Of a stretch of 64,000 bases of DNA, positions 8,826 through 41,423 are shown piece by piece. Source of the DNA: Patescibacteria group bacterium (GTDB lineage: Bacteria; Patescibacteriota; Minisyncoccia; Phycocordibacterales; PALSA-1337); NCBI GenBank assembly GCA_018971685.1, contig JAGXAG010000001.1, positions 19,162 to 83,161 of the forward strand, in the 5' to 3' direction. The position numbers and the translations under genes were made by a program. Within the stretch, counting starts at the first letter, position 1. The number at the start of each line of letters is the position of its first letter. A model generated the notes under the pieces. The model was not told the DNA's origin. It made no database searches and saw nothing but the letters and a program-made list of their open reading frames with translations.

Positions 8826-8833
8826 GGCGGCTA

Positions 8834-11990: not shown

Positions 11991-11999
11991 AATAATGAC

Positions 12000-13673: not shown

Positions 13674-13679
13674 CGCATT

Positions 13680-13708: not shown

Positions 13709-13803
13709 AGTAATCCCCAGAAAAAGTTGCTTTTTAATGGGAGCGGCGGTAGTGTTGCGACAGAGATGCTCGAGAGCAAGAAAAGAGACGAAAAACGAGC
13801 CGG

Positions 13804-13951: not shown

Positions 13952-14005
13952 CAAGCTCGTAAATTTATCACAATTTCTCTAACATGCTAGCATATCTATA
14001 TTAAA

Positions 14006-15037: not shown

Positions 15038-15054
15038 TTGACAATGGTGAAAAC

Positions 15055-15522: not shown

Positions 15523-15529
15523 TTACCGT

Positions 15530-15645
15530 CCATCCGCACAATGCGCCACCCTCCCTTCACTGGCTTCGCAAGACGGAGACGATGATCGAGATAACAAAAA
15601 CTCAACTTGAAGCCAGTGAATGGCGGCGGCGCCTTGTGCGGATGG
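15530..15645. repeat. long imperfect palindrome (about 37-bp arms) downstream of ruvC, followed by a consensus DnaA box
   Basis: CCATCCGCACAATGCGCC...TTCACTGGCTTC pairs with GAAGCCAGTGAA...GGCGCCTTGTGCGGATGG. Confidence 0.45.
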
Positions 15646-15653
15646 GGATGTGG

Positions 15654-15662
15654 TTATCCACA
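15654..15662 (+). promoter_or_regulatory. perfect DnaA box TTATCCACA
   Basis: Exact match to the 9-mer consensus, within the TGTGGTTATCCACA context. Confidence 0.4.
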
Positions 15663-15746
15663 GTTTTATAATTGTACATATTGCCAAGTTTTTATCGCTT
15701 TGCTACAAATTAATCGTTTCGGTATTACAAGTTAAAAACAGCTGCC

Positions 15747-15962
15747 GTGTCCAGAGTAAAAGAAAAAACAAAAAACGCAACGATGGGTGACAGTATCGAT
15801 GAAATAAAAAAGCCGATAGATATCATTGAGATCGATGATGTCGTCGAGGAAAAGCTGGTCGATGCCGTATTGGACGAAGACGACATGGCGTCTGACAATG
15901 ACGAATCTGACGAAATAGACAGTGATATACTTGACTCTCTTCGTGATGAGTGGGAAAGTTAG
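15747..15962 (+). CDS. hypothetical highly acidic small protein (71 aa) upstream of and coupled to the PBP gene
   Basis: ORF ends 4 nt before the PBP1A start. D/E-rich sequence. Confidence 0.35.
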   Translation: MSRVKEKTKNATMGDSIDEIKKPIDIIEIDDVVEEKLVDAVLDEDDMASDNDESDEIDSDILDSLRDEWES

Positions 15963-15965
15963 CTC

Positions 15966-22985: not shown

Positions 22986-24344
22986 TCAATTAGAAGACAC
23001 CAAATCAAGCGACCATAATGACAGGTCGTTTTTGTTCATGAAGAACAAGTATTGATCATTTTCGTCCAACTGCAGATTAAAAGCGTCGATTATGGCGTTG
23101 CCTTGGTTGAGCAGATCGGCGACCTGGCGGACTTGGCCGGTATCGGCGTCGAGGAGCCAAATGCTGTCAATGAATGAATTCTGGCCGAGGTACCAACTGT
23201 CCGGATATGTGCCGGCCGGTATTTGCGAAGATACGCCGCAATAAACCTGTTCTTTGAATACCGCCGACCAAACACATTTGTCAGCCAGTGTCCGGAATAT
23301 GGTTGGTGCCGACTTGCCGCTCTTTATGTCATAAACGGCGGTAGTGATCTTGTTATTGCCGTCATAACTCGAATACAACACTTTGGTGGCGTCTTTGCTT
23401 ACTCTGGTGGCCAGCCCCTTGATATCTCCCATAATTTGTTTGACGACACCGGTCTTTACATTCACGAAATATAAATAGCCCGAATAATAGGCGCTGGCCT
23501 TAGTGGTTACGGCAATAGTGTTGGCTTCTGGCCATTCAACGGTCAATTGAGTAAAAGGCAGGCTGAATAATTGGGTTTGTTTTGACCCGTCAAAATTGGA
23601 GATATAGCCGACGGCACTGTCGTTTTCATCGGTCACCACCAATATTTTGTCTCGTTTTGGCGAAGCGGCGACAGCCAAAATGTCGCCCGAGACGATCTTA
23701 CCTTTTAATTCATAAGGAGTTTCGGTTATGTCAGGCAATTGGGCCGTTGAATTTAATGCCATCGAAGATGAGGCGGTTGAAGATGCGTTTGCTGAAGCTG
23801 CGGTTGGCAAATTCACGGTCGGCTTCGGCAGTGCCCTTTTCAAAACATTTGCGATCACCGTAGTTACCTGGTCGCTGTTATCTCCCAGGTATTGCCCCAC
23901 GAATGTGGTGTCGTCTTTGTTCCACCAGCTTTGGTAAACGCGCGGCAGTAGTGTATTCGAAATAGTGGTAATGTCGAGCGAATCGCCCCGCGCCTCGTAA
24001 ATATTCCCTCTCCCTCTATCTATCCACCTGACTACGGTTGTGCTGGCCGTGGTGCTGGCGGCATATCCTCCCACCGGCGTGGCGCTCAATTGCCTGATCA
24101 CCGGCAAAGGCACGCCGGCATTGCTCGTTGTTGTTGTCGTCCCGTTATTTTGACCACCATTTTCATTTTGCCCTGAATTATTTGCCGGCAGAGCGCGGTT
24201 GAAAGGCACGAATCCGTTCTGAATCTGGTTTGGCGCCGCTGTTATCGACGGTCGCGCTGTCTGGCGGATGAAGAAATACCATAAAGCGCTCAAAACAACA
24301 ATTATGATTATTACTGTGACGATTATGTTTACGGTTTTTTTCAT
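22986..24344 (-). CDS. secreted/membrane-anchored hypothetical protein (N-terminal TM, Thr/Asn-rich linker, probable beta-rich domain); last gene of the T4SS-like operon
   Basis: MKKTVNIIVTVIIIIVVLSALWYFF TM. Start overlaps the upstream gene stop (24341-24344). Confidence 0.5.
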   Translation of the reverse strand: MKKTVNIIVTVIIIIVVLSALWYFFIRQTARPSITAAPNQIQNGFVPFNRALPANNSGQNENGGQNNGTTTTTSNAGVPLPVIRQLSATPVGGYAASTTASTTVVRWIDRGRGNIYEARGDSLDITTISNTLLPRVYQSWWNKDDTTFVGQYLGDNSDQVTTVIANVLKRALPKPTVNLPTAASANASSTASSSMALNSTAQLPDITETPYELKGKIVSGDILAVAASPKRDKILVVTDENDSAVGYISNFDGSKQTQLFSLPFTQLTVEWPEANTIAVTTKASAYYSGYLYFVNVKTGVVKQIMGDIKGLATRVSKDATKVLYSSYDGNNKITTAVYDIKSGKSAPTIFRTLADKCVWSAVFKEQVYCGVSSQIPAGTYPDSWYLGQNSFIDSIWLLDADTGQVRQVADLLNQGNAIIDAFNLQLDENDQYLFFMNKNDLSLWSLDLVSSN

Positions 24345-25615
24345 TTGCCTGAAGAAAATTTTTGGCTAAACGAACTGTTTACTTTGAGCAGTTCGTCTTC
24401 CAAGTTCTGTTTTAATACTGGATCCTGGATGTCTTTTATCGATGTTTGTATTTTATTAAGCTCATCAACCGTAGTCGACTTGAAATCAGTAATTGTAAAA
24501 TAGTCTTGTCCTACCCAAACCCGAGATTGCGCTAATCCAAAAAACTGTGGATCTATGGTCGCACTGTTTATTTTAATTGATTCTCCCTGTAGCTTAAGCA
24601 TAAGCTGATCGGCGTTGGCGTTATCGTTTATACCACCGGGTTTACTTATAGAGTCATATTCTCCCAATTGCGTCAGCTGTGCATTTCGAGTATCTCTTTG
24701 TTGGTCTATAAAGTTTATACCATTGTTAATTTGCTCATCTATACTTTTTGCCGAGATCGAATTATCCAGATTTTGTGCGTTTATATTTTGAATTGTATTC
24801 GAAATACCGCCGTTACTCATGATTGATTTTCCAGTCAAAACGATCATATTTGCTTGTGCGTCGTTTATCTTTTTGTCGATTTGAGCCATCTGCACCTCTG
24901 ACGGTAAGGTGTCTATCTTACTTTGTAGATCTGTTTTCTCTTGAAGTAATTGGTTTACCGTATTTTTGGCTTGCTGAGCTTGGTCTACATATTCTTGTCC
25001 AACGGCATTATATTTTTGTGCCTCCGCATTTAACTGATCAAATAATGTTAGCGGTGACTCCTGTTGTGTAGCTGGGACAGATATGGGCGGTATGCTGGCG
25101 GGAATTGCGACGAGTTTGGGATTGACGGTCTTCAGGATGAGATAAGAGCCGAGGACCATTAGTAATCCCCAAATGGCGTTCCAGAATTTGTCTTTGCCGG
25201 CACTCTTCTTATTCCACGCGTCCGAAGTCATATATTCAAACCCGCCCCAGACCATCATGAACACGGCGGCGACGGCGGATAGGGCGATCAATAGGTTGAA
25301 TGCGTAAATAAAGAAAGTACTCAAATCAACGGTTGTCTGAGGTGCGCCGGCGCCTCCGGGACAATCTACCGTCTTACTCATTCCGCCACCGCCGGGCAGA
25401 TCAACGCTGTAAGTATATGGTATGCACGGCAACGGTTCCAATAAGGTATAACTTTTTACACCGGCAGATGTTACCGTTGGTGTAGGTGTTGGAGTTGGAG
25501 TAGGCGAGTTAGATTGTGCCGCGGATATATTCAAGGTCAATAAAAACACCGAGAGTAACAAGAAAAATGTTCTGAAAAAGCGGCGATATGTTGTTTTGTG
25601 AAGATTATATGCCAT
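24341..25615 (-). CDS. pilin-like protein: signal peptide, PT repeat, Cys pair, two-helix hydrophobic hairpin (VirB2/TrbC-like topology) fused to about 300 aa of coiled coil
   Basis: Start set at MAYNLHK; the track ORF runs to 25747. Topology LSTFFIYAFNLLIALSAVAAVFMMVWGG...FWNAIWGLLMVLGSYLIL. Confidence 0.4.
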   Translation of the reverse strand: MAYNLHKTTYRRFFRTFFLLLSVFLLTLNISAAQSNSPTPTPTPTPTVTSAGVKSYTLLEPLPCIPYTYSVDLPGGGGMSKTVDCPGGAGAPQTTVDLSTFFIYAFNLLIALSAVAAVFMMVWGGFEYMTSDAWNKKSAGKDKFWNAIWGLLMVLGSYLILKTVNPKLVAIPASIPPISVPATQQESPLTLFDQLNAEAQKYNAVGQEYVDQAQQAKNTVNQLLQEKTDLQSKIDTLPSEVQMAQIDKKINDAQANMIVLTGKSIMSNGGISNTIQNINAQNLDNSISAKSIDEQINNGINFIDQQRDTRNAQLTQLGEYDSISKPGGINDNANADQLMLKLQGESIKINSATIDPQFFGLAQSRVWVGQDYFTITDFKSTTVDELNKIQTSIKDIQDPVLKQNLEDELLKVNSSFSQKFSSGK

Positions 25616-26678
25616 TGTAGTTATTAAAAGTTGTGCTAGTGGCGGTTTGAGAACCATTGTCGGAAAAGACGGCAGAGAAACCATTAGATGCGCTTTGGAG
25701 AATATCTTTGGAGTTTTCGACGCGAAGCTGTATGTTGGAAGAGCCACTTTGGCCGGCCGGCGCGCGCAGGACGATCGACTGGCTGGCGGAAAGCGCCGCT
25801 TGAGACAAGGAATTTACCATCCAAGAAAAAGATAAATCATTCGTGTTGCCGGCCAGTCCGTTGAATCCATAAGGAACCGCCAAGACTGAAAGCTCGCCGC
25901 TGGAACCCAAACCGACACTGTTCCCTATCGCTTTATTATACAACGGTCCATATAAAGGGTCGTTATTGTAAAATTGGATGAATGGACTGCCGGCTTGCAA
26001 AATAACAGTCTTTTCAGCCGAAGCAGTGCCATCGCGGGTAGTGACCTTCAGGTTAATCATTCTGGGGCGTGGCACAACCTCGTCTGTCCAGATAAAAACT
26101 TGTTTGCCATAGCCGCTTGCGGATTGGACGACTTTTGTGTCTTTGGTCCACTGATACACCAGTGTTTTCGGATCATATTCTACGCCGGATGAATTGGCGA
26201 TATGGGGAATAGCGATTACTTTGTAGGTGTTTTGATAGACCAACGGTATTTTGCCTTGGAAGAAAGGCGGCGTATAGCCGTCGCTTTCTATAATAAAATC
26301 AATACTGCCGGTAGTTACGGTGATATTCGTGCTCAAGGTTTTGCCGTCCGGCGTGGCGGCTGATACTGCCACGGCAAGCTTTTTGCCCAGGTCGGGCGCT
26401 ATCACTTGGATCGAGGTGACGCCTATGCCTTTTTGGTATGTGTTGCCGTTCAAAGTCCAAGTGATATTGGATGAATTCAAGTCCGCAATGTAACTTTCGG
26501 CCGTAATCGTCAAATTTTGCCCGGGCGTTGGGTTATCGGTTGAAAGTTTCAGGTCTATTCCTTGAATGGAAGTCGGCACGCCTTGCGCGAAGGTGAACAA
26601 GAAAGGCAACATAACAATTGTTGTCATCCCTGCGAATGCGCTGACCCAGAATTTTACCGAAAAAACCAGAGGTCTCAT
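25605..26678 (-). CDS. secreted hypothetical protein (signal peptide; Ig-like/beta-rich)
   Basis: Start set at MRPLVFSVKFW...; the track ORF runs to 26765. Ser/Thr/Asn-rich. Confidence 0.45.
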   Translation of the reverse strand: MRPLVFSVKFWVSAFAGMTTIVMLPFLFTFAQGVPTSIQGIDLKLSTDNPTPGQNLTITAESYIADLNSSNITWTLNGNTYQKGIGVTSIQVIAPDLGKKLAVAVSAATPDGKTLSTNITVTTGSIDFIIESDGYTPPFFQGKIPLVYQNTYKVIAIPHIANSSGVEYDPKTLVYQWTKDTKVVQSASGYGKQVFIWTDEVVPRPRMINLKVTTRDGTASAEKTVILQAGSPFIQFYNNDPLYGPLYNKAIGNSVGLGSSGELSVLAVPYGFNGLAGNTNDLSFSWMVNSLSQAALSASQSIVLRAPAGQSGSSNIQLRVENSKDILQSASNGFSAVFSDNGSQTATSTTFNNYNGI

Positions 26679-26733
26679 TAACAATATTGTACCAATATCG
26701 GAAAAAACTTGCGAAGTTGGTTGTGGAGAGTAT

Positions 26734-27228
26734 TCAAGTCTTAGACGCGCGCCTGATGCCGTCATTTACCAAAGGTTTGGTATTGGCGTTTCTATATGCC
26801 GAAGGGTCGTAAGTGTTTGCCGTTTGCGTAACCATCTGTGGCTGGCGCACGCCGTCCTTATAGAGTGGTTGCTGTACCGTATTTGATAACATTTCCTCCT
26901 GTTCCTTTTGCGCTTGCAGTTCCGCGTCTTCCTGCTTGACTGACCGCTGTATATACCAAATATCGACGATCCAAAAAGAAGCAATGCCGCCGGTAAGTTC
27001 TCCTATACCTGCCACCCCAACCAGCGAGATCAATCTTCCCGGTCGTTTTATCATTGACACGCCGCGAAGCTGGAAATATACGCCGATAAGCGCGCCGCAA
27101 GCCGGATCGAATATCATATTTATTACCTCGCCTATTCCGGTGAAATCAATGACATACTGTATAATGTCTATTATTCCGGTAATTCCATATAAAAACCACC
27201 ACTCCGTTTTTCCGATTTTCGATGCCAT
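26734..27228 (-). CDS. hypothetical small membrane protein
   Basis: 164 aa, 3-4 TM helices. Inside the T4SS-like operon. Confidence 0.45.
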   Translation of the reverse strand: MASKIGKTEWWFLYGITGIIDIIQYVIDFTGIGEVINMIFDPACGALIGVYFQLRGVSMIKRPGRLISLVGVAGIGELTGGIASFWIVDIWYIQRSVKQEDAELQAQKEQEEMLSNTVQQPLYKDGVRQPQMVTQTANTYDPSAYRNANTKPLVNDGIRRASKT

Positions 27229-27251
27229 AATTCTGAATTATAGCACGGCAA

Positions 27252-29066
27252 TTATTTTCCCGATTCCTCCAATTGCCTCTTGGCCTCTTTGATATCCATA
27301 AGCTGCTGCGGATTGGTCGTGATAATCTGGTCTTCCGTGTATGATCCGACGATCTTGATCGCCACATGCTTTAGCCCCACGAAGAATATGCCTTCGCCGA
27401 CATCTGATTCAAGGAGCAAATACTTCTCTTCGTCGGTCAGGTTGAAAGTTCGCTGAATATAATCGATGACCGCCGGCGACTGCTTGAGCAAGACTTGTAT
27501 CGAAGAGTTCGTGACGATCGGCATGCCATAAGGCGATTTCAAGAAGTCGTCGACATCCTGGGTTATAGTGGCAAGTCCCAAGAAGTATTTGCGGCCTCTT
27601 TTCGCCAAACCGAATAGGAATGAAGCCGTGTCTTCGGATTTCATCATCCACCAAGCTTCGTCGATGACCAGTAGGCGCTTTTTCAGATTTTTGCGAATGG
27701 CGTTCCATATGTAGTGAGTGATCAAGTACATGGCCACCGGCTTCAGCTCATCCTCCATGTCCCGGAGCGAAAACACGACGAATTTCTTGTTAATGTCGAT
27801 GTTGGACGGACGGTTGATGAAGCCCGACCAAGTGCCCTTGGTGTACTTGGATAACCTTTCAACCAGCGAGTCTGCACCCTCCATACCGGCTAAGACAAGT
27901 TCGAAGTCGGAGAGCAGCGGCGGTTCGACACTGCGAAAATCAGAATCGGGAGTTATGTCTTTCAAGGCGTAAGTCTCAGTTATGGCGCGGTCGATGATGG
28001 CGTCTTCTTCCTGGGTCAAGCCGCCCAACATTATCCGGAACAATCCGACCAAATTGATGATGTTTGAGCGCAAGACATCTGAGGCGGACTCGTCCTCTCT
28101 CGGTATCGGCAGGTCGAATGGGTTGATATGATGCTCGGAATTGAGCGAAATGTTGAAATATTTGCCTCCGGTCGCACCCGCCATGTACTCGTATTCTTTT
28201 TCCGGGTCGATCACGATGACATCCGTATCGAACATAAGCGTGCGCAAGATTTCCAGCTTTGTGCAATACGATTTGCCAGCGCCGGCGACCGCGAAAGTCA
28301 CCGAATTGTAATTTTCGAGCGAGAAACGGTCGAAAAGCACCAGTGAAGAATTGTGGCGGTTGATGCCGTAAAGAATTCCTTTGTCGGAAGTTAGGTCGAA
28401 AGACACGAACGGGAACAAGCTGGAGAGCGGCGAAGAATTCAGCTTCGAATGTACGCTCAACTGATCGTCGCCCATGGGCAATACGCTTTTGAAGCCCTGT
28501 TCTTGCTGGAACAACGCCGGTTTCAAGTAGACAAGCTTCGATTCGAGGATCGACTTGATCTCCGATTCGAGCTTGTCCAATTCGCCTTCGGAATCGGCGA
28601 AAATCGTTATATATACGCCGACATCGAACAGCCTTTCTTGCGCCTGCATCAGCTGATCGCGCAAGGCCTCTAGGTCTTGGTAGGCGGTGTCCAGGGCCGG
28701 ATCGCGCACCAATCCGCGCTCTTCCCTTCTCGATATCTGGCTTTGAACCTCGGCTACTTTCTTCTGGAAATGGCGCAGGATTTTAGCCGTGTCTACCGGA
28801 TGGATGAATACGGAAATATTAAAGACCTTGTCCAAATTTATAATCGGCGCGAACCAGCTTTCTTGCAGGAATCTGGGATATGAAATGACGAACAGTGTGC
28901 GCCCGACCTTCTCTCCCAGATTCAGGTCTTTCGGGCTGACTTTGAGCGCCGAGGGCGCGATGATGTCTTTCAATTCAAGCACGCCGGCCTGATAGATTTC
29001 TTCGGGCAGGATTGATACTATTGGCGACTGCTCTTTTCTCTTGAATATGTTGTTGAAGAATGACAT
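27252..29066 (-). CDS. virB4: type IV secretion ATPase VirB4/TrbE/CagE family (C-terminal ATPase part)
   Basis: Walker A FAVAGAGKSYCTK. Walker B RLLVIDEAWWMM. FLGLATITQD motif. Confidence 0.85.
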   Translation of the reverse strand: MSFFNNIFKRKEQSPIVSILPEEIYQAGVLELKDIIAPSALKVSPKDLNLGEKVGRTLFVISYPRFLQESWFAPIINLDKVFNISVFIHPVDTAKILRHFQKKVAEVQSQISRREERGLVRDPALDTAYQDLEALRDQLMQAQERLFDVGVYITIFADSEGELDKLESEIKSILESKLVYLKPALFQQEQGFKSVLPMGDDQLSVHSKLNSSPLSSLFPFVSFDLTSDKGILYGINRHNSSLVLFDRFSLENYNSVTFAVAGAGKSYCTKLEILRTLMFDTDVIVIDPEKEYEYMAGATGGKYFNISLNSEHHINPFDLPIPREDESASDVLRSNIINLVGLFRIMLGGLTQEEDAIIDRAITETYALKDITPDSDFRSVEPPLLSDFELVLAGMEGADSLVERLSKYTKGTWSGFINRPSNIDINKKFVVFSLRDMEDELKPVAMYLITHYIWNAIRKNLKKRLLVIDEAWWMMKSEDTASFLFGLAKRGRKYFLGLATITQDVDDFLKSPYGMPIVTNSSIQVLLKQSPAVIDYIQRTFNLTDEEKYLLLESDVGEGIFFVGLKHVAIKIVGSYTEDQIITTNPQQLMDIKEAKRQLEESGK

Positions 29067-29069
29067 ATT

Positions 29070-29705
29070 TTATGTTATTTGTATCGGCTTCTCGGTCTCG
29101 CCGGGGTTGAATAACTTATAGAACAATTCTACCACTTCTTCCGTGCCCAATTCCGCGGTTCTGATGCCGCATCTGACCAGTCCCTGTTCGACCACTGAGA
29201 CTCTCTGTTCCAGTTGCGTGCGGTATTCATTGAACTGTTCGTCCGGGGTCGGCCCCTGGCCGCCGTTTTTCCGACCGGGCAGGAATTTTGAAACAGGGTT
29301 TTTGCTCGCGGTCATGATCGGCGGGTCATAAGGTACGACAACGAAGAAGCTCTTGGTCATAATGTTGGTGTTTTCGACGAAAGTCTTGATGAAGTCTATG
29401 TATTCGCGGACCTGGATCTTCATCAGCTCGGTAGTCTGTTCTTTGTACCGCCCTTCCAACAGGGCGATATACGGCCGTATGTCTAGCTTCTTCGATTGCA
29501 CGAATATTTGCACCGAAAAATCCAGCGAATTCAGGAAATTCTGGAACTGGAACATGATGGAATTTTGTTCATCGGCGGACTTCAGGGCGAAATTCAAGGA
29601 CGATGCCAAGACGACGGATCTCATGCCGCCGTTACGCAGGATGATCACACCGTCGCGAATTTCGCGGATTGGCACGAAGTCTTGGGTTGTTTGTGATTTG
29701 GTGGC
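29070..29705 (-). CDS. VirB4 N-terminal (CagE_TrbE_VirB) domain protein, encoded separately (split VirB4)
   Basis: Start set at MATKSQTTQDF (ATGA overlap with the PrgI-like stop); the track ORF runs to 29900. The FVPIREIRDGVIILRNGG pattern is typical of the VirB4 N-domain. Confidence 0.55.
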   Translation of the reverse strand, partial: ATKSQTTQDFVPIREIRDGVIILRNGGMRSVVLASSLNFALKSADEQNSIMFQFQNFLNSLDFSVQIFVQSKKLDIRPYIALLEGRYKEQTTELMKIQVREYIDFIKTFVENTNIMTKSFFVVVPYDPPIMTASKNPVSKFLPGRKNGGQGPTPDEQFNEYRTQLEQRVSVVEQGLVRCGIRTAELGTEEVVELFYKLFNPGETEKPIQIT

Positions 29706-29707
29706 CA

Positions 29708-30145
29708 TTATTTCTGGTTCTTGTTCGAATAAACGCTCTCTTTGATATCCAGACTCCACGCCAAGTCTTTCAATTTGCTGTCGGATATTTTCGGCACCAT
29801 TACGGAAGCGTAATTCCGGATCTCTTTTGCGGCGGCTTGGCCGCTTGCCGGCGGCTTCTTGTCTTCTTTTTTCCATATGTACAGCTTGCCCCCCCGCCAA
29901 TATTTGAACGCCGACTCGGCGACACTCAACAACGGGAAGTGGTTGTAGACTTTGTAGAAAGCGAGCGCCGCGGATACGGCCATTATTACAAGCATTGGGA
30001 TCAAAGCCAATGCCAAGTTGCCGATGATGACATAGGTTATGAATGACAAGCCTCCCCCGCCGGCCAGGTATATGAATTGCTTCAAGGTGAGCGGGCCGAA
30101 AATTTTGTCCTCTACCTCTATGAATTGGGGAACTTGGAAGCGCAT
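29708..30145 (-). CDS. PrgI/VirB3-like small T4SS membrane protein
   Basis: MRFQVPQFIEVEDKIFGPLTLKQFIYLAGGGGLSF followed by 2 TM helices. PrgI family pattern. Confidence 0.55.
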   Translation of the reverse strand: MRFQVPQFIEVEDKIFGPLTLKQFIYLAGGGGLSFITYVIIGNLALALIPMLVIMAVSAALAFYKVYNHFPLLSVAESAFKYWRGGKLYIWKKEDKKPPASGQAAAKEIRNYASVMVPKISDSKLKDLAWSLDIKESVYSNKNQK

Positions 30146-30216
30146 TGATTATATTATAGCGGAATATTCGGTTTAACGCTCTCGTTTGTTGCCGTACATG
30201 TATATTTGGTGGGGAT

Positions 30217-30987
30217 TTATTGTATGGGTTCGCGATACGGATCTTTCTCGTAAGGTTTATTTTTCACCCCTGCCTCTTTTGGTTGCTCCATTTGCTTTTT
30301 CACCTCCACCGGCAAATTCGCCGGCACGGTACCTTTTTGTTGTTCCTCATCCTCTTTCACATCCACCGCGCCCTTTTTCTCGTCCGACACAATTCTCGTA
30401 ACCTTTTCCGTGACTGTCGCGGTCGTGTTTGCCAACAAGTGGTCGACTATCGGGTCCGTATGTTCCTCATCCTTCCAAATTTTTCCATATCTACCGCCCC
30501 CGCCCCCGATTTCATTGCCGTTATCGTTGCCATTTCCGCCATCATTGTCACTCTCGTCCTTCACGATCTCAAATTCCCCCGCCCGCTCCACCGCCGCAAT
30601 ATCGCGTTCTTTCTGCGCGGTGTTCGGGGAATATATTTTTTGTTCCAGTCCATCTTCCGGAGTGATTTGTTCCTCCATTTTTTGCAGGTGCTGTCGAATA
30701 GGATTAAATACTTCCGAATTGATGTCAGTGGCGATTTCCAACGCCGTTTTTCTGTCTATTGAACATCTCGATGCCATATGGCTTGTAAAATCAGCCGATC
30801 TTGCCAAACCCAACATCACCAATCCCACTTCGTCGACCAATTCTCCCGTCTGATCTATCAACAGTCCGTGTTTTTTCGCCACAGCTTCGATTTTGTCATT
30901 CATTTCCGTAGAAGTTATTGCCTCCCGCACTTCCGCCGGGAGCTTTTCAAACTGATTTTGTATTTCTTCTGAAGTAAATTGTCTCAT
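30217..30987 (-). CDS. hypothetical acidic/Gly-Asn-rich protein
   Basis: 256 aa. Start overlaps the VirB6-like stop (30984-30987). Confidence 0.45.
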   Translation of the reverse strand: MRQFTSEEIQNQFEKLPAEVREAITSTEMNDKIEAVAKKHGLLIDQTGELVDEVGLVMLGLARSADFTSHMASRCSIDRKTALEIATDINSEVFNPIRQHLQKMEEQITPEDGLEQKIYSPNTAQKERDIAAVERAGEFEIVKDESDNDGGNGNDNGNEIGGGGGRYGKIWKDEEHTDPIVDHLLANTTATVTEKVTRIVSDEKKGAVDVKEDEEQQKGTVPANLPVEVKKQMEQPKEAGVKNKPYEKDPYREPIQ

Positions 30988-32891
30988 GTTTTTGGTTTTT
31001 CTTCTTTCCTTTCGCCTCCTCCACCCTCCTCCTCTTTCAGTTTATCTTGCAAGGCCTTTGCAAGTTTGGCCATGTCTTTTCCACCCTTCACTTTCTCGCC
31101 CTCATCTATATCCTTCTGTATTTCATCAAGCTGTTTCTGATATTTTTCTACGATTTTAGCCCTTTGTTCTTTCAGGCTCTTCACTTTTTCTAACTCAGAC
31201 TCGTCTTCTGTGGCCTCAGCGATATTCTGTGCGTACGCAATTTGCTTATCTAATTCTCCCGTCTCTTCTTTAATCTTTGCATTTATCTCAGCTCTTTTTC
31301 CATAGTTCTTTTTAAGATTATCAGCTAACGAATCGCGAGATAATTTCGTAGCTGATTCGCGAGCGCCTCTGCTAGTCAACATTCCGTAGAAGACGCTTCT
31401 CTTTGGCAGATTCTGTCTAAATCCTTCTTGTGCTCTTTCGGCTCTTTCTTTTGCCGCATTGAATTCCGCATCGGTAGTGTAATCGCTTCTTTCTACTTCT
31501 CCAAGTCTCTTATGCATAGCCTCGATATCTTTCTTTTCTTTCTTTAGGGCGGCATCATATCCGCCTTTCTTCCCACCAAATCCAGCCGAACTCACCTTCG
31601 ACAACCCCTTTGAAACCATCATGCCCGTCGCAGGACTAAAGGCCGCAAGACGAGCCACGGCGCCACTTTTATTTAATGCATAAGCAGCTTGGCCTGCAGT
31701 ATTTCTTCCAATAAATTCTCCAACCCTACTTCTGGCCCAGTTGCTGAATTTACCGGTTATTGTCCCCGATGCTCCAGAAAACTGCAGTGCGGTTGCAAGC
31801 GGAATGTTTATGAGGAAGATAGATACGGCAAAACCGACGAATAGTTGTAGATACGGCACATACCAGTAAGTGCCGGTGGTTCCGACCAAACCGGTTTGTT
31901 GTCCCAGACTGCTCAGGTTCATAGCCATCATGAGTTGTACTACCACATAGGTGAGAAAGAGATAGACCGGTAGAAAGATCAGATTGGCTTTCAAATGATT
32001 CCACCATTTTCCAGACATTTCTTTTTGTATTTGTGGTAGAACAAAACCGGCAATCCACAGAGGAGAAAATGCTAGTAGAAGGATCAGAATAACTACACGC
32101 CAAAGGGCCGCCGCGGCCGCGCCTATGAAGCTAAGTCCTGCGAAAATTGTAACCACAATTGCCGCAGAGTTGATCAAAATAAGGCGAATGCCGGCGTCTA
32201 TTCGAGTTCCCATGTTTTGTAATTGTCCTTTGTTTCCCCACCACTGCGTAACATCTAATGCACCCATGAATACATTTGCTATGCCGCCGTTTCCGTTTAT
32301 GCTCGTGATTGCCCCGATAGAGCAGGTAATATAAGTATTCACCCCAGCATTATTTTCACATGAGGATAGAGAGGCAGATGAAGACATGGCATTGTAAAAC
32401 TCCAATGACACAATATTTGAAGCGTCGATAAGCACTCTGGTAAAAAAGAAGCTGAAATTAATCAAGATGCCGGCAATGACTATATTCTTTATAAGGGTAC
32501 CCCAGCTGGCCGGTTTCAAGTCAAGGATCATCTGTATGGCGGCGATCAATATCAGAAAGATCAAAACCATTGTAGCTAGATCCCTTACAGTTCCCCATAT
32601 CTGGAATATTGCCGGAGTGTTATTTATGAATACACCCAAGTGAGTTGTAAGATACATAGCAAAATTCAAGACAACAGCAGCTAGAGAAAGTCCGAAGCTA
32701 ACTATTGTGAGAGCGAAATATATTAGATAACCGATAACTTGTAACGCGAATCCAATGGTTAAATCTTGAAGTCCTAAATATCCCGACACGGCTTGTGCCA
32801 ATTGTGCATTTGCCACATGCCAACTTCCTATCCACGCAAAAATCACCATAGATATTACGGGAACAATTTTTTTGTAATTTATCTTGGGCAT
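30984..32891 (-). CDS. VirB6/TrbL-like polytopic membrane protein with C-terminal charged coiled-coil tail
   Basis: At least 8 TM helices over about 450 aa, then a K/E-rich tail. TrbL/VirB6-like architecture. Confidence 0.55.
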   Translation of the reverse strand: MPKINYKKIVPVISMVIFAWIGSWHVANAQLAQAVSGYLGLQDLTIGFALQVIGYLIYFALTIVSFGLSLAAVVLNFAMYLTTHLGVFINNTPAIFQIWGTVRDLATMVLIFLILIAAIQMILDLKPASWGTLIKNIVIAGILINFSFFFTRVLIDASNIVSLEFYNAMSSSASLSSCENNAGVNTYITCSIGAITSINGNGGIANVFMGALDVTQWWGNKGQLQNMGTRIDAGIRLILINSAAIVVTIFAGLSFIGAAAAALWRVVILILLLAFSPLWIAGFVLPQIQKEMSGKWWNHLKANLIFLPVYLFLTYVVVQLMMAMNLSSLGQQTGLVGTTGTYWYVPYLQLFVGFAVSIFLINIPLATALQFSGASGTITGKFSNWARSRVGEFIGRNTAGQAAYALNKSGAVARLAAFSPATGMMVSKGLSKVSSAGFGGKKGGYDAALKKEKKDIEAMHKRLGEVERSDYTTDAEFNAAKERAERAQEGFRQNLPKRSVFYGMLTSRGARESATKLSRDSLADNLKKNYGKRAEINAKIKEETGELDKQIAYAQNIAEATEDESELEKVKSLKEQRAKIVEKYQKQLDEIQKDIDEGEKVKGGKDMAKLAKALQDKLKEEEGGGGERKEEKPKT

Positions 32892-32893
32892 GA

Positions 32894-34567
32894 TTATCGA
32901 TTAAACAAGAACGAACTCCCCGCGCTATCGGGGAAACTGTCGCAGGATTGCTGGAACTTAGCCGCTTCGTCGGCGAACGGCTTCAGGGCATCTTGGACGG
33001 TCTTAAGGTCAGTTTGTGAACCTTGAACATCGTCCTGTGATATGTACAAGGAAGAAACATAAGTCGAATTGTCTGATCCGCTCGCACCTGAACCGTTAAA
33101 TCGTGTAGAAATAGCATTGATATCGTCTACGGTCGAGGCTGAGTTTATGTCGGAAATCAATTGCTTCGCAGCTACGACTTTTTGGTCGGCCGCCGCCATT
33201 TTCACTCCGTAAATGGTTTCTAACGGCTCAACTTTCGTAGCAATGGCCGAATCGATAGCCGCCATCTGCCCACGCGCATAATTCAAGGCTGCCTGGTTAA
33301 CGAAGGCTGTTTGTGTTGTAGAGCCGACTTTGCCGTCAAAGCAAGTCTTTGCTGCCGAGTACTGATTTTTGGTTGCGGTGATAGAGTCGGTAATTTGCTT
33401 GTAAGTTTGGTCGTATTGTGAAGCGAGCGAATAATAGTCGTTTGCCGCGGACAAAATGGATTGTTTGGCGCTTGCGAGTTGCTCGTTTTGCGATTGTTGT
33501 TGCAATTGATAAATAGCGCCAGGCAAGCCACTACTTCCTCCCGGGCTACTGGCAGTATGCAAACCGCCGGTCAGAACTTTGGTTACTAGTTGTCCGAACA
33601 ATGCTCCGACCACTTCGTTTATGGAATTGGCCAAGTTTAGCTGATCCTGCGGAATGCCCAAGGATTTGTTGATGGAACCGGCGATAACCGATCCCGGCGT
33701 CTGTGTTTCGCAATCTTGGTAGCTGACGGTTCCGTCTTTGTTCTGTTGTCTCGTAAGCCCCGCGTTCTCGTACGACATGGCCGTGTTATAGTTATCCGGC
33801 GAGAGGTCGTTCGGGTCTATAGTATCCACCGTTTGACATTTCTGCCAGGACAAGAACCCGCCACCTTGGGCCAATTGCTCGTGATATTGTCCTTGTTTTG
33901 ACGATATCCTAGACAAAAGGTCACTTTGGGCCACGAGATATGCACCAACCGGATTATTCTGCGGCTGGGTAGTCATGGTTATGAATGCCGGCCAGCCGCC
34001 CTGCTTGAAATCACCGTTCATAAAGCCCTGAATGCTGTAACCGTTAACCGTCGAATTTGCCACGCTCTGAATGACGGTGGATAAGGTGCAAGTGTAGCGC
34101 GGATACAAGTTAGCTTGTCCCAAAGCGAGTGCCAAGCGTATGTCGACATTGAACGGCGTACACAAATTCGCCAGTATGCCGGTCTGAGCTATGAAGTCTC
34201 CAGTTACCTGATCGGCCACATCAAGGAAAAAAGCTTGTGGATTTGTCAAAAACGCCGGATTGCCTTGAAAACCAGAATTAATCCAATTGACTACGCTAGT
34301 CGTGACCTCTTGGAGCGCAATCTTCGCCACTGTCCAAGCCACGCCATCCCAGGTGCATTTGGCACTTTTCATTGCGTCAGTGCTGTTGTCTTGTACTGGT
34401 ACCCTCTGGCTGAAGCTCACATTCAGACTTTTGCAACCGAACAAGCTACCCAGTTGCGCGTGTGCTGGGACCGGGTTGAAAATTAATACTGTCGCCAGCA
34501 TAGGCATAATTGCCGCAATCAGGCACAACGAGGCAAGCAGTGAATTTTGGCCATCAGATTTGAACAT
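32894..34567 (-). CDS. large secreted hypothetical protein (signal peptide, Cys-containing, Gln/Ser-rich)
   Basis: 557 aa. MFKSDGQNSLLASLCLIAAIMPMLATVLIF signal/anchor. Abuts neighbours with 2-nt gaps. Confidence 0.5.
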   Translation of the reverse strand: MFKSDGQNSLLASLCLIAAIMPMLATVLIFNPVPAHAQLGSLFGCKSLNVSFSQRVPVQDNSTDAMKSAKCTWDGVAWTVAKIALQEVTTSVVNWINSGFQGNPAFLTNPQAFFLDVADQVTGDFIAQTGILANLCTPFNVDIRLALALGQANLYPRYTCTLSTVIQSVANSTVNGYSIQGFMNGDFKQGGWPAFITMTTQPQNNPVGAYLVAQSDLLSRISSKQGQYHEQLAQGGGFLSWQKCQTVDTIDPNDLSPDNYNTAMSYENAGLTRQQNKDGTVSYQDCETQTPGSVIAGSINKSLGIPQDQLNLANSINEVVGALFGQLVTKVLTGGLHTASSPGGSSGLPGAIYQLQQQSQNEQLASAKQSILSAANDYYSLASQYDQTYKQITDSITATKNQYSAAKTCFDGKVGSTTQTAFVNQAALNYARGQMAAIDSAIATKVEPLETIYGVKMAAADQKVVAAKQLISDINSASTVDDINAISTRFNGSGASGSDNSTYVSSLYISQDDVQGSQTDLKTVQDALKPFADEAAKFQQSCDSFPDSAGSSFLFNR

Positions 34568-34569
34568 GA

Positions 34570-35469
34570 CTATTGAATGAGTGTATTCATAATATCTTGA
34601 TTAAAATCAAACGATACACCATGTACTTTGAGCGAGTCAGTCATACCTTTTAGAGCGTCAACCAAGTCTTGTATTCCTTTCGGGTGGGCGCTTACGCCGG
34701 CCAAGCCCTTAACAGGATCAGCCGCAAGCGATCTCAATTGTTCGGCCGCGAATTCAAGCGTGGCAAAAGCGTTGATCAACGCGGCGTCTTGTGAAGACAA
34801 CTCTTGTGGTACTGGTACATTCAACAGTTCGGAAACTATGCGTTTATAAGCGACGACAATGGGATCTATCCCTCCAAGAACCGACGGATCGTTGTTCGTC
34901 AGATATTCCTGAACCACGGCCGATTCATTTTTCGTCACATCGTACGAATTGATTATGCCGACCAGCGCATTGCTGAACGCCTGCACGGAAGCAGCATCGG
35001 TCGCGCCTGTTATGCGAAGATCATCCGCGGTATAAGTCTTCGGCGGAGAATCGTTAAACGATGAGTTGACTGTATTTGCCATGGCCTGGCTTATCATATC
35101 AGAATTGGTGTCAAGCCCGGCCTGCTTCAACATCGTGTATCTGGAAAAGAAATCGCGCCCAAGCCTATCTGTATCAGTCAAAACGGCGCGGTTATTCGTG
35201 TTCGATACACTTGACCTGTAGTTTATCGTTTTTCCGGTCGAGGGAGCCGTTGTTGTACCGCTATCAAAAAATTCCTTTTGCCAATTTGCCGACGAGTTGT
35301 CCGCCGAGATTTTATAGTCGTAATGGGCCGATGCCGCCAAGTCCGGCCGGCTTTGCGCGTCCGCGGAACCTATTTGCCCGGAATTCACATAAGCAGCCAC
35401 GCCTATTACAATTGCGGCGCTTGCGACGAATACGAATATCGTTTGTCGGCGCGAGTAGAAAGACACCAT
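34570..35469 (-). CDS. membrane-anchored hypothetical protein (N-terminal TM plus about 270-aa extracytoplasmic domain; VirB8-like size and topology)
   Basis: Start at MVSFYSRRQTIFVFVASAAIVIGVAAYV; the track ORF runs to 35490. First gene of the minus-strand operon. Confidence 0.4.
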   Translation of the reverse strand: MVSFYSRRQTIFVFVASAAIVIGVAAYVNSGQIGSADAQSRPDLAASAHYDYKISADNSSANWQKEFFDSGTTTAPSTGKTINYRSSVSNTNNRAVLTDTDRLGRDFFSRYTMLKQAGLDTNSDMISQAMANTVNSSFNDSPPKTYTADDLRITGATDAASVQAFSNALVGIINSYDVTKNESAVVQEYLTNNDPSVLGGIDPIVVAYKRIVSELLNVPVPQELSSQDAALINAFATLEFAAEQLRSLAADPVKGLAGVSAHPKGIQDLVDALKGMTDSLKVHGVSFDFNQDIMNTLIQ

Positions 35470-35564
35470 AATATTATTATACCAAAGCAAGGATCAAAAC
35501 GATTGAATCGTGGGGATAACAAGCGCCGCGGCTAAATATTCTGCGGTCTGATATAATCATAGTT

Positions 35565-36623
35565 ATGGCCAAGCGCGCGCGATTTAACATACTGATAATT
35601 ATTGCGGCATGTGTTGTATTTACCGGTACGACTTACGCCTCCGGAATATTTGCGAGAAACCTGTCCATAGGCATGAGCGGCGCAGATGTCGAAAAACTGC
35701 AACAATTGCTGAATTCCGATCCTACCACAGCGGTTTCTTCTTACGGGCCCGGTTCCGCCGGCGCCGAGACTGATTATTTTGGCGCAAAAACGGCCGCGGC
35801 TGTAGCCAAATTCCAGGAAAAATACGCGCGAGATATCCTTACGCCGGCGAGATTGTCTTATGGCACCGGATATGTCGGGCCGCTGACGCGGGCAAAATTG
35901 GAGACTGTCGCCGCGAAACTGTTTCAGCCGACAGTCTCGACGGCTTCGTCAGGCCCCGCGGTGCCAGAAGCAACGGCTTACGCTGAAGCTCAAGATGTCT
36001 CGACATTGCAAAAGTCACTGGCGCGCGGTGTCATACCGCAGTGGGCAGCTTTCGCAGCTCTACATGCTGACGATTTGTTGATATTCGGACTTTCCAATGA
36101 TAAAGTAAAACCGGGCGATATACTCGTCGTTTCCGGTTTTGGCCTTGATCCCGATACGACAATTCACTTCGGCAACAAGGTTTCAACATCGGTATCAACT
36201 TCATCCGGCAACGAATTGATCGTGAAAATACCATCTATTCCCTACGGTGTGTACGATGTTTGGGTGAGCAACACGCGCGGGACAACCTTGGGTAAGACGC
36301 CGTTCAAGATAACGATTGGTGCGGTTACCGATAACAGACCTATGATTTTTTCCGTATCTCCTACACACGCGACCAGAGACGATGAAGTTACTGTGACTGC
36401 AAAAGGGCTGGATGCATCCGGCAACAATATTTACTCATCTCTTGGTATAATAAAGTCGATATCGTCCAGCGACGGCAAGACGATACGATTCAAAGTTACC
36501 GATTTGCCGAATGCTTACGGTTTTTTCAACAGCCCATCGCTCAATAAATTTACCGTAACTTTTGGAATCAGAACCGGCGACGGATTGAGTGTAAATTACG
36601 GATACTTCATCATTTCAAAATGA
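35565..36623 (+). CDS. secreted protein with peptidoglycan-binding (PG_binding_1-like) domain and beta-sandwich repeats
   Basis: GMSGADVEKLQQLLN...FGAKTAAAVAKFQEKY PG-binding motif. Signal peptide. Confidence 0.55.
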   Translation: MAKRARFNILIIIAACVVFTGTTYASGIFARNLSIGMSGADVEKLQQLLNSDPTTAVSSYGPGSAGAETDYFGAKTAAAVAKFQEKYARDILTPARLSYGTGYVGPLTRAKLETVAAKLFQPTVSTASSGPAVPEATAYAEAQDVSTLQKSLARGVIPQWAAFAALHADDLLIFGLSNDKVKPGDILVVSGFGLDPDTTIHFGNKVSTSVSTSSGNELIVKIPSIPYGVYDVWVSNTRGTTLGKTPFKITIGAVTDNRPMIFSVSPTHATRDDEVTVTAKGLDASGNNIYSSLGIIKSISSSDGKTIRFKVTDLPNAYGFFNSPSLNKFTVTFGIRTGDGLSVNYGYFIISK

Positions 36624-40289: not shown

Positions 40290-41423
40290 ATGCGATTTTC
40301 ATCAAATCCTCATAACAAAAATAAAAGTCATTTGAAGCGCCCATATTCATGGACAGCGACTTTAATCATAGCCATTACTACGCTTGTAGTTTCTTCAGGG
40401 ACCGCTTATGCCGGCCTCTTTTCTTTCCTGGCGCCACTCATCGAAGGTTCGCCGGTTTCGGCGCAAACTGTTACCGATAATAATCTGCAAAACCTTCAGA
40501 CCCTGGCTTTATTGCAAGCGGCTGTCAATACTGACCCAAACCCCAACAAGATTGCCGACGAAATACCGATCGAAAACAACAACACATTGTCTCCAAGCGT
40601 AGCTGCTTCCAATACTGGTACCGATTCCGACCAACTCAATACGCAAGTTACCAGTTACTCTGTCCAAGAGGGAGACAATCTCTCGGTTATCGCAAACATG
40701 TTCGACATCTCGGTTGATACAATCAAACAAGCTAATCATTTGATCGGCAATAATGTTCATGTCGGCCAATCACTGGTTATATTGCCTGTCTCTGGCGTTT
40801 TGTACGCTGTGAAAGCCGGTGATTCGATACAAAAAATTGCCGATAGGTACAAAGTAGACGAGAGTGATATTTACGCATACAACAATCTAACATCCTCGTC
40901 AGTCATAGTGAAAGGTCAAGAACTCATCATTCCTCACGGTAAACCTTCAGTTTCGGATGTCAATTCGTTCTTGGCTAGACAGAAAATGCATGTGCCTTCG
41001 TTTGAACCACTACTCGACCCTGTATGGAATTGGCCGTCGTACACCGATTATTGGACTTGTCCGGTACCCGGTGCACATCTATCTCAAGGTTTGCATGGGC
41101 ACAATGCTGTTGATTTAGCTATTGGCTTGAATACCCCTATACGCGCTGCCGCCGCCGGTACAGTCATTGTCAGCAAGTCTAATGGCTATTATGGACGCAG
41201 CTCTAACGGCGGTTATGGTAACTTCGTCATGATCGCTCATCCTAACGGCGCCGAAACCCTCTATGCCCACATGTCTAGACCGGCAGTTTCCGTCGGAGAG
41301 AGTGTTGCCCAGGGTGAAATCATCGGTTATATAGGTATGACCGGCATGACGACCGGACCCCATGTTCACTTTGAAATCCGCAATGCCGCCAATCCATTCG
41401 TCGACCCCGCGCTGTGTAAATGA
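40290..41423 (+). CDS. LysM-domain M23 family peptidase (cell-wall hydrolase)
   Basis: Two LysM repeats (YSVQEGDNLSVIA; YAVKAGDSIQKIA). M23 HxxxD/HxH motifs (GLHGHNAVDL; GPHVHFEI). Preceded by a 264-nt structured leader. Confidence 0.8.
   Translation: MRFSSNPHNKNKSHLKRPYSWTATLIIAITTLVVSSGTAYAGLFSFLAPLIEGSPVSAQTVTDNNLQNLQTLALLQAAVNTDPNPNKIADEIPIENNNTLSPSVAASNTGTDSDQLNTQVTSYSVQEGDNLSVIANMFDISVDTIKQANHLIGNNVHVGQSLVILPVSGVLYAVKAGDSIQKIADRYKVDESDIYAYNNLTSSSVIVKGQELIIPHGKPSVSDVNSFLARQKMHVPSFEPLLDPVWNWPSYTDYWTCPVPGAHLSQGLHGHNAVDLAIGLNTPIRAAAAGTVIVSKSNGYYGRSSNGGYGNFVMIAHPNGAETLYAHMSRPAVSVGESVAQGEIIGYIGMTGMTTGPHVHFEIRNAANPFVDPALCK

Follow-up and report, generated by a model that had tools for sequence, protein, structure and literature searches.

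Results

The stretch of DNA analyzed here, referred to below as the window, comprises 64,000 nucleotides (nt) of a Patescibacteria group bacterium (GenBank assembly GCA_018971685.1, contig JAGXAG010000001.1, positions 19,162 to 83,161). It contains a cluster of 11 genes for a putative type IV secretion system (T4SS), which all run in the same direction on the minus strand and span positions 22986 to 35469. Gene number and start codons were taken from independent gene calls on three contigs, from three assemblies, with an identical locus. For a wider view, contig JAGWKR010000001.1 (GCA_028865255.1) was used, in which the window corresponds to positions 9763-73762 and of which positions 4905-81440 (76.5 kb) were viewed. 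An original prediction, made by a model from the sequence, had placed 13 genes in this block. The block itself was recovered as an uninterrupted minus-strand run of long open reading frames (ORFs) from 22986 to 35490, and the gene number was corrected to 11, the products being, in order, 299, 557, 635, 256, 145, 212, 604, 164, 357, 424, and 452 amino acids (aa) long. Tight packing with overlapping genes had also been described and is evident here: with the called starts, the coding fraction of the block is 98.9%, and the ten junctions measure, in order, 2, 2, −4, 71, −1, 3, 23, 55, −11, and −4 nt, including four overlaps and three spacers of 2-3 nt. The GC content of the cluster is 0.472, that of its flanks 0.421 and 0.494, and the mean of the window 0.466.

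The three longer spacers (30146-30216, 27229-27251, and 26679-26733) lie 5′ of the genes for PrgI and for the 164- and 357-aa products, and each carries a TATAAT-like or TGnTACAAT box. These boxes suggest putative internal promoters; the promoter and terminator scan of the region gave counts not above shuffled expectation.

The motor of the system is a VirB4-family ATPase of the "short" TrsE type (27252..29066, minus; 604 aa). It matched Pfam PF19044 (P-loop_TraG) at 86 bits (cut-off, 25.8) as well as AAA_10, and with 371 bits it exceeded the cut-off (325) of the NCBIfam model NF045971 (VirB4-like conjugal transfer ATPase, CD1110 family), of whose 752 positions it spans 175-732. The Walker A motif (GAGKS, residues 262-266) and the Walker B motif (DE, residues 469-470) are both present, and no variation was seen among 28 sequences at G262, G264, K265, S266, D469, and E470. 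To our knowledge, a VirB4-family ATPase with intact Walker A and Walker B motifs is the sole universal marker of T4SSs.

Next to it, at 29070..29708 (minus), a 212-aa protein is encoded that resembles a detached VirB4 N-terminal module. It aligned with positions 99-233 of 894 in VirB4_plasma NF045975 (E = 1.3e-10), with positions 2-118 of 752 in the CD1110-family model NF045971 (E = 1.5e-4), with positions 3-178 of TIGR00929, and with positions 11-142 of 201 in the NCBIfam TrsD model (E = 2.6e-6). The last of these matches reached 27 bits, far under the cut-off of 200; judged by these profiles, the protein is a TrsD homologue and not a member of the curated TrsD subfamily. A PF26593 (TraC-like) match was listed in the precomputed annotation, and none was obtained with the Pfam copy searched. 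Direct alignment of the TrsD-like family with the window VirB4 family by hhalign returned nothing, the relation being visible only via the NCBIfam profiles. The two proteins occupy separate parts of the CD1110 model (2-118 and 175-732), and the VirB4 family hidden Markov model (HMM) aligned end to end with TrsE of pGO1 (672 aa), but with the unsplit PrgJ of pCF10 (796 aa) only from residue 222. These data indicated that the original prediction was correct in reading VirB4 as split. The ATPase, encoded as a TrsD-like N-module and a TrsE-like body, is predicted to be catalytically intact.

Two genes upstream of VirB4 sits the gene for a small membrane protein of the PrgI/VirB3 type (29708..30145, minus; 145 aa), whose stop is overlapped by the start of the TrsD-like gene by 1 nt. 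The protein matched Pfam PF12666 at 44.8 bits (cut-off, 27), the same family being precomputed on the contig, and its predicted transmembrane (TM) segments at residues 24-42 and 44-62 form the two-helix hairpin expected of VirB3, in agreement with the identity first proposed for it. When the 11 family HMMs of the cluster were run with hmmsearch against 47 reference T4SS proteins of pGO1, pCF10, pCW3, and R388, only VirB4 gave a strong match and PrgI a weak one (to pGO1 TrsC, E = 0.005).

A VirB6/TrbL-like protein had also been claimed for the cluster. The candidate, g635 (30984..32891, minus; 635 aa), is polytopic; about 8 TM helices are predicted, and about 230 aa at the C-terminus make up a charged coiled-coil tail. 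Pfam TrbL (PF04610) matched 5 of its 27 orthologues (best E = 5.4e-5) and not the window copy, and precomputed matches to PF04610 or PF19590 were found in 5 of 76 homologues. An AlphaFold2 model of residues 1-420 (pLDDT, 79.6; pTM, 0.73) had as its best Foldseek matches in the PDB the TrwI/VirB6 chains of R388, with probabilities of 0.97-0.98, an E value of 0.06, and template modeling scores of 0.39-0.42. These three lines, each of them weak, and as a fourth an HMM match to the protein at the corresponding place of a Bacillota T4SS cluster (see below) converge on a VirB6 assignment, which we regard as only moderately supported.

The pilin-like protein of the original prediction was identified as g424 (24341..25615, minus; 424 aa). 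It begins with a signal peptide and a Pro/Thr linker, followed by a two-helix hairpin at about residues 100-160, which corresponds to a VirB2-type T4SS pilin domain, and then by a variable, coiled-coil C-terminal extension of about 260 aa. PF18895 (T4SS_pilin) matched all 27 orthologues (best E = 1.3e-8), and the window copy scored 22.2 bits, under the cut-off of 26.6. TrbC/VirB2 (PF04956) matched two orthologues. Other C-terminal domains occur in single orthologues, namely, He_PIG, an immunoglobulin (Ig) domain (E = 1.2e-11), and weak CHAP and M15 matches (E of about 0.0025). A VirB2-like pilin gene close to virB4 is unusual among monoderm systems, and the extension sets this protein apart from typical pilins. 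No second pilin gene or other paralogue was found in the window.

The six remaining proteins, g299, g557, g256, g164, g357, and g452, received no Pfam or NCBIfam assignment (g256 gave only sub-threshold Pfam matches), which agrees with the expectation that most accessory components would lack a family. Neither did they show similarity to the reference T4SS proteins, including the VirB8-like PrgL, TcpC, Orf13, and TrwG, and profile searches against PDB sequences with the TrsD-like, g635, g557, g299, g452, and g357 families returned only coiled-coil or Ig noise. Four of the six carry predicted signal or anchor segments, the N-termini of g557 and g357 being signal-peptide-like and those of g299 and g452 membrane anchors.

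The first gene of the cluster, g299 (34570..35469, minus), encodes a bitopic protein in which an N-terminal anchor (residues 10-28) precedes some 270 aa of ectodomain. Its median identity in relatives is 28%, and 7 of 27 orthologues contain extracellular TSP3 repeats. It is probably the "VirB8-sized anchored protein" of the original prediction: the anchor was confirmed, and similarity to VirB8 at the sequence level was absent. At that level, no family of the cluster matched TrwG, PrgL, PrgD, TcpC, or Orf13, and the PDB profiles of g299, g452, and g357, among which a structural analogue of VirB8 is conceivable, were negative. The g557 protein (32894..34567, minus; 557 aa) appears to be secreted or anchored. 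It has a conserved, Cys-containing domain at about residues 60-340, and long helices form a bundle at its C-terminus. Some of its orthologues carry Ig-like and F5/8 type C domains, and a weak DUF4141 signal in a few relatives is the only link of the unassigned proteins to another T4SS; DUF4141 genes stand between traG and traJ in Bacteroides conjugative transposons. The g357 protein (25605..26678, minus; 357 aa), present in 76 loci, is secreted and probably built of Ig-like beta-sandwich repeats, with a weak profile match to the Ig-like phage Hoc protein (E = 0.0025) and weak Ig_3, PKD, and BiPBP_C matches in a few orthologues. The last gene, g452 (22986..24344, minus), encodes a protein in which an N-terminal anchor (TM segment at residues 7-25) is joined by a linker rich in Ser, Thr, and Asn to an ectodomain of about 330 aa. 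This ectodomain is beta-rich and may be a beta-propeller; DPPIV_N, which is of the beta-propeller type, matched 2 of 27 orthologues weakly. The gene is found at the same position in about 57 loci with a median identity of 30%.

The two other unassigned proteins are of a different kind. The 256-aa g256 protein (30217..30987, minus) is acidic (net charge, −19), has no TM segment and a low-complexity center, and is probably cytoplasmic; it occupies the same position in 50 related loci, where the median match covers 45% of the protein at 33% identity. The 164-aa g164 protein (26734..27228, minus) is glycine-rich and hydrophobic with a polar tail and is probably membrane associated. It looked poorly conserved by tblastn; of 75 loci, an HMM search (E < 1e-3) found positional orthologues in 55, and jackhmmer in 62.

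None of the 11 genes encodes a hydrolase domain that could represent a VirB1-like cell wall hydrolase. Close by, a protein with PG_binding_1 and TIG domains (35565-36623, plus) is encoded in divergent orientation to the cluster and has the same place in about 19 related loci, and an M23/LysM peptidase (40290-41423, plus) lies 5 kb from the cluster and recurs upstream of uvrD in at least six loci. Either of them could be the missing VirB1-like wall-remodeling partner.

We then turned to the parts that a conjugation system would have. As had been stated for the window, no coupling protein (VirD4/TcpA), relaxase, or VirB11 was found when Pfam was run on those of its ORFs that reach 180 aa and do not lie on a larger gene. 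Precomputed Pfam hits over contig positions 4905-81440 likewise contained no type IV coupling protein (T4CP), relaxase, or VirB11; no search for oriT was made. A cryptic T4CP among the large unannotated ORFs of the window was ruled out, as none of these contains a Walker A motif. Matches to TrwF, TrwE, or TrwD, or to the Pfam families, which would indicate the VirB7/VirB9/VirB10 core or VirB11, were not obtained from the cluster. A PilB/GspE-type ATPase of 557 aa (12000-13673, plus), known from the precomputed hits, is encoded between polA and ruvB, beyond dnaA and about 9 kb from the cluster. It carries T2SSE and a weak MshEN match; by its domains, it belongs to the VirB11 superfamily but has a type IV pilus architecture and is not VirB11-like in size. 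No other T2SSE-superfamily ATPase was found in the window; a second pair, of T2SSE and T2SSF genes, follows just past its right edge.

Directly downstream of the cluster are yidC, rnpA, rpmH, dnaA, and dnaN, and upstream of it are the gene for the peptidoglycan-binding (PG-binding)/TIG protein, ksgA, and uvrD. Four TTATCAACA boxes flank dnaA and are suggestive as a local group; over the whole window, matches to the DnaA box were not above chance, and the cumulative GC skew showed no clear origin switch at dnaA. A replication origin is likely to lie beside the cluster. The location next to oriC that had been claimed is therefore accurate as to the adjoining genes, and as to oriC itself it is a deduction from them.

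To look at related loci, one genome per GTDB species was scanned, yielding 581 VirB4 relatives, of which the best 80 were examined; loci were picked by VirB4 similarity. In about 40 loci with full flanks, each from a different species, the gene order was identical, namely, uvrD-ksgA-(g299-g557-g635-g256-PrgI-TrsD-VirB4-g164-g357-g424-g452)-yidC-rnpA-dnaA-dnaN-PBP1, and genomes with the syntenic locus are labeled Taylor-, Zambryski-, and Campbellbacteria, Paceibacterota, and similar. A look for conserved synteny in Patescibacteria had been suggested at the outset, and both the order and the flanks proved to be conserved. The database holds more than 8000 relatives of VirB4, the top 120 of which are at least 89% identical, and thousands of the relatives come from metagenome-assembled genomes with Patescibacteria names.

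The proteins of the locus differ widely in their conservation. VirB4 is 77-93% identical to the copies of the 80 species representatives, DnaA is 51-72% identical to its window copy, and in each of the 46 genomes compared, conservation is higher for VirB4 than for DnaA. Relative to the window proteins, the median identity is 80.7% for VirB4, 64.6% for the TrsD-like protein, 55.9% for PrgI, 55.8% for DnaA, 51.7% for UvrD, 49.1% for DnaN, and 28-37% for the envelope proteins. Nonsynonymous divergence (dN) from three relatives was 0.06-0.08 for VirB4, 0.22-0.23 for DnaA, and 0.47-0.83 for the envelope proteins; synonymous divergence (dS) was saturated, so that only dN is given and no dN/dS ratio. 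A single operon thus displays a gradient in which the motor evolves about 3-fold more slowly than DnaA and the surface proteins 2- to 3.5-fold faster. Such a pattern is, as far as sequence comparison can tell, that of an old, vertically inherited core function, with a motor under extreme constraint and a fast-evolving surface, and not that of a mobile element.

Among characterized systems, the best NCBIfam model for VirB4 is CD1110 (CTn2/pCF10 type). A search of PLSDB gave 4258 VirB4 matches, all below 60% identity; the best, at 28-37%, are CD1110-family ATPases, and the closest plasmid matches all belong to Bacillota or Actinomycetota. The trs region of pGO1 from Staphylococcus aureus, an MPF-FATA subclass, has the same split into TrsD and TrsE, the same order trsC(VirB3)-trsD-trsE, and a small VirB2/CagC-like gene upstream. 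In contrast to the cluster, it is plasmid-borne and accompanied by genes for a relaxase, a T4CP (TrsK), a CHAP hydrolase (TrsG), a topoisomerase, and a single-stranded DNA-binding protein, none of which is encoded in the cluster, and sequence identity between the two is low. The prg/pcf system of pCF10 from Enterococcus faecalis shares PrgI (VirB3), a CD1110-family VirB4 (PrgJ, the best reference match, E = 2e-50), and a monoderm architecture without VirB7, VirB9, and VirB10. It differs in that PrgJ is unsplit, its first ~220 residues corresponding to the separate TrsD-like gene here, in that it has no pilin, and in its possession of PrgK (hydrolase), PrgL (VirB8-like), PcfC (T4CP), a relaxase, and the adhesin PrgB.

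The closest cluster found outside Patescibacteria is on a megaplasmid of Pontibacillus sp. ALD_SL1 (NZ_CP062975, 350-361 kb; locus 7489-17042). Its genes encode, in order, two pilin-like proteins, a membrane protein (779 aa), proteins resembling VirB3 (116 aa) and TrsD (274 aa), VirB4 (621 aa), and an M23 endopeptidase (1050 aa). The window family HMMs matched the first six of these in order, with E values from 6e-11 to 3e-132: the two pilin-like proteins were matched by the g424 HMM (E = 1.5e-12 and 6e-11), the 779-aa protein by the g635 HMM (E = 2.5e-14), the 116-aa protein by the PrgI HMM (E = 5e-9), and the 274-aa protein by the TrsD-like HMM (E = 2e-36). These matches indicate that a five-part core of pilin, VirB6-like protein, VirB3, TrsD, and VirB4 is shared with a monoderm system. 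The Pontibacillus cluster differs in residing on a Bacillota plasmid, in a VirB4 of 35% identity, in the M23 endopeptidase directly after VirB4, and in the lack of homologues of g299, g557, g256, g164, and g357, with a marginal match for g452 (E = 8e-4). The annotation within 12 kb of it lists neither a T4CP nor a relaxase, and the plasmid is typed as non-mobilizable. Flagellar genes lie about 5.6 kb downstream.

At the left end of the window, positions 1-8000 probably hold an integrated element at a tRNA-Lys gene (7924-7997, minus) that extends left of the window. Two recombinases are encoded in it, a tyrosine integrase (5143-6291) and a large serine recombinase (6338-7963), the gene for the latter overlapping the tRNA gene at its 3′ end. 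An HTH_17 protein resembling excisionases (4710-5135) and several ORFs without a family match are also present. The GC content is 0.405 in the first 2 kb, and a PemK toxin and a DUF3800 protein are encoded just upstream on the contig. Neither a relaxase nor a T4CP was seen in this element.

Discussion

The T4SS-like apparatus of the original prediction was borne out by profile searches, which found VirB4 and PrgI homology and, with moderate support, VirB6 homology. We conclude with good confidence that the cluster is the chromosomal T4SS of Patescibacteria in a Paceibacteria-type layout, that it is probably non-conjugative, and that it probably serves episymbiotic macromolecule exchange with a host. 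A non-conjugative use had been proposed from the outset and is supported, the function being deduced from the missing T4CP, relaxase, and VirB11 and from vertical inheritance.

This interpretation agrees almost point for point with published work (PMC12102498; PMC10633639). In a survey of 3,035 Patescibacteria genomes, Quinonero-Coronel et al. (2025, PMC12102498) described a monophyletic Patescibacteria VirB4 clade nested in MPF-FATA, in which TrsD is the commonest VirB4 partner beside PrgI/VirB3, VirB6, and VirB2-like pilins, with almost no VirB8. Relaxases were found in only 103 genomes, and T4CPs were mostly distant from virB4. In Paceibacteria, the best-represented class of that survey, the T4SS neighborhood includes dnaA, dnaN, rnpA, ksgA, and rpmH. 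The authors concluded that the system was repurposed, perhaps importing DNA or other macromolecules. In Southlakia epibionticum, the T4SS (SEML1_0006-0019), which has no recognizable coupling or relaxase proteins, proved essential for epibiotic growth in transposon sequencing (Tn-seq) (Wang et al. 2023, PMC10633639), and a 2025 FEMS review (PMC12857230) restates the points on Patescibacteria T4SSs. T4SS-pilus-like tubes at the parasite-host interface and feeding on host RNA have also been described (bioRxiv 10.64898/2026.06.21.733656).

The cluster shares with these systems VirB4, TrsD, PrgI/VirB3, a putative VirB6, and a VirB2-like pilin, the lack of a relaxase, a nearby T4CP, and a recognizable VirB8, and the neighbors dnaA, dnaN, rnpA, rpmH, and ksgA. 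It departs from them in no essential respect; the differences consist in one pilin-domain gene with a long extension, whereas Saccharimonadia have an array of small pilins, and in six syntenic accessory genes that the survey left unannotated (PMC12102498). The assembly GCA_028865255.1 was not found in those parts of the survey's supplement that were accessible. The existence of the system, its composition, its missing conjugation parts, and its origin-proximal site are already published (Wang 2023; Quinonero-Coronel 2025; 2025 FEMS review). Little is left as new, namely, the six accessory proteins, which are conserved and lack annotation, the extension of the pilin, how strongly VirB4 is conserved, and a Bacillota cluster with the same core.

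The following mechanism is proposed. A VirB4/TrsD hexamer would dock on VirB3 and VirB6 in the single membrane and would supply the energy with which the pilin-domain protein is extracted and built into a conduit on the surface or a short pilus. The lineage-specific proteins g299, g557, g357, g452, and g164 would cross or decorate the wall and touch the host cell, replacing the missing VirB8 and VirB1 parts. The machine would then move macromolecules over the interface between epibiont and host and serve an episymbiotic lifestyle; it would not be conjugating because no coupling protein or relaxase is at hand.

Several observations weigh against this picture. Support for VirB6 is statistically weak (Foldseek E of 0.06, no Pfam match of the window copy), and with its 260-aa extension the pilin-domain protein may not polymerize as VirB2 does. 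A T4CP or relaxase could be encoded elsewhere in the draft genome, and VirD4-like genes occur in most Patescibacteria genomes, usually far from virB4 (PMC12102498). Membership in the Patescibacteria VirB4 clade is suggested by best matches only, and all functional evidence comes from another class, Saccharimonadia. Choosing loci by VirB4 similarity slightly inflates the conservation of VirB4 relative to its neighbors; the gap between VirB4 and DnaA is too large for this selection bias alone.

The locus might instead be an integrative conjugative element (ICE), or a decayed remnant of one, that came to lie near the origin by chance and whose relaxase and T4CP are nearby out of view or lost. The nearest VirB4 relatives outside Patescibacteria are indeed on Gram-positive conjugative plasmids, and an integrase/recombinase module stands at tRNA-Lys 15 kb away in the window. 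Between that element and the cluster, however, lie polA, the PilB-type ATPase gene, ruvB, ruvC, a penicillin-binding protein (PBP) gene, dnaN, dnaA, rnpA, and yidC, and the borders of the cluster itself (yidC on one side, ksgA or the PG-binding gene on the other) show no integrase, repeats, or tRNA. The GC content of the cluster is like that of its flanks, and a VirB4 evolving about 3-fold more slowly than DnaA, with all 11 genes intact, fits neither decay nor recent transfer. The original prediction had named an ordinary ICE as the outcome that a nearby relaxase and coupling protein would reveal; neither was found in the 76.5 kb, and the strict synteny in about 40 species together with the core-gene flanks rules out an ordinary ICE. 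We therefore consider any form of the ICE explanation extremely improbable.

What the non-conjugative machine moves, and in which direction, is a matter of more evenly matched alternatives. Helicobacter ComB, Bordetella Ptl, Brucella VirB, and archaeal Ced are, like the cluster, driven by VirB4 without a coupling protein or relaxase, and import as well as export is possible on such a basis. The first three, however, belong to diderms and have VirB7, VirB9, and VirB10, Ced has its own CedA proteins, and none of the four is a close sequence relative of the cluster. ComB serves DNA uptake and Ced DNA import, both without a T4CP. By analogy, the cluster could encode an uptake machine for DNA or other nucleic acids of the host, supplying nucleotides that the cell cannot make. 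T4CP, relaxase, and VirB11 are missing here as they are, by general knowledge, in ComB, and the window VirB4 gave a weak partial match to CedB (E = 1.6e-8). This match is limited to the P-loop region, the generic ATPase core, and the cluster has no DNA-binding or nuclease component. Import of DNA or macromolecules has been proposed for these systems (PMC12102498), and VirB4 together with polynucleotide phosphorylase (PNPase) has been linked to the acquisition of host RNA (bioRxiv 10.64898/2026.06.21.733656). In Southlakia, on the other hand, transformation needs comEC, with type IV pili implicated, and comEC is dispensable for the epibiont, whereas the T4SS is essential independently of it (PMC10633639; PMC12857230). 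Uptake of host-derived material is our best guess for the direction of the cargo, and a tentative one.

Export of protein effectors or toxins at a host bacterium, as by the T4CP-less Ptl, Brucella VirB, or Streptococcus suis 89K systems, is somewhat less likely, though still a serious candidate. T4CP-less protein-secreting T4SSs exist (PMC12857230; PMC12102498), and the Southlakia system "may instead export proteins" (Wang 2023, PMC10633639). Yet Ptl and Brucella VirB retain VirB11, which is absent here, and no effector or chaperone was recognized in or next to the cluster, the soluble g256 being the only protein without an assignment that might qualify. A device for adhesion or pilus assembly only, without a substrate channel, in which VirB4 solely builds a pilin fiber with adhesive proteins, would suit the long variable extension of the pilin-domain protein and the fast-evolving secreted partners that gain adhesin-like domains (TSP3, Ig-like, F5/8 type C). 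We hold it to be quite improbable, considering that a VirB6-like channel subunit is kept at a conserved position and that type IV pili are already adhesive in Patescibacteria (PMC12857230), a PilB-type ATPase gene being present in the window. In our ranking, uptake comes a little before protein export and well ahead of pure adhesion, with an ICE essentially excluded.

Within the preferred reading of a non-conjugative T4SS for exchange with a host, a more specific proposal can be made, which in its entirety is unlikely. The five surface genes g299, g557, g164, g357, and g452 would form an extracellular module specific to Paceibacteria, to which g256 might be a partner in the cytoplasm; together with the extended pilin, they would build a new wall-spanning host-contact conduit through which VirB4/TrsD imports host RNA or DNA that the cells cannot make. 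Whatever its cargo, this T4SS is probably central to the host-dependent life of a large share of uncultivated ultra-small bacteria, as it is essential in the one species tested and as its motor is here more conserved than the replication initiator DnaA. The locus provides a clean 11-gene reference for the Paceibacteria-type layout. Its six accessory proteins, five of them at the surface or membrane, are targets for learning how a monoderm T4SS crosses the wall and contacts a host, and the five-gene core on the Pontibacillus megaplasmid may offer a tractable model.

Two further features of the window were noted on the side of the cluster away from dnaA. A 521-aa ORF (43438-45003, minus) without a family match is polar over its long N-terminal half and has a single TM segment in the center, and it adjoins a DksA/TraR-type zinc-finger gene (43063-43428). 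A PNPase gene (45081-47234, minus; two RNase_PH domains, KH, and S1) lies 10 kb from the cluster, and PNPase and VirB4 have been paired as ancestral traits tied to host-RNA feeding in the phylum (bioRxiv 10.64898/2026.06.21.733656).

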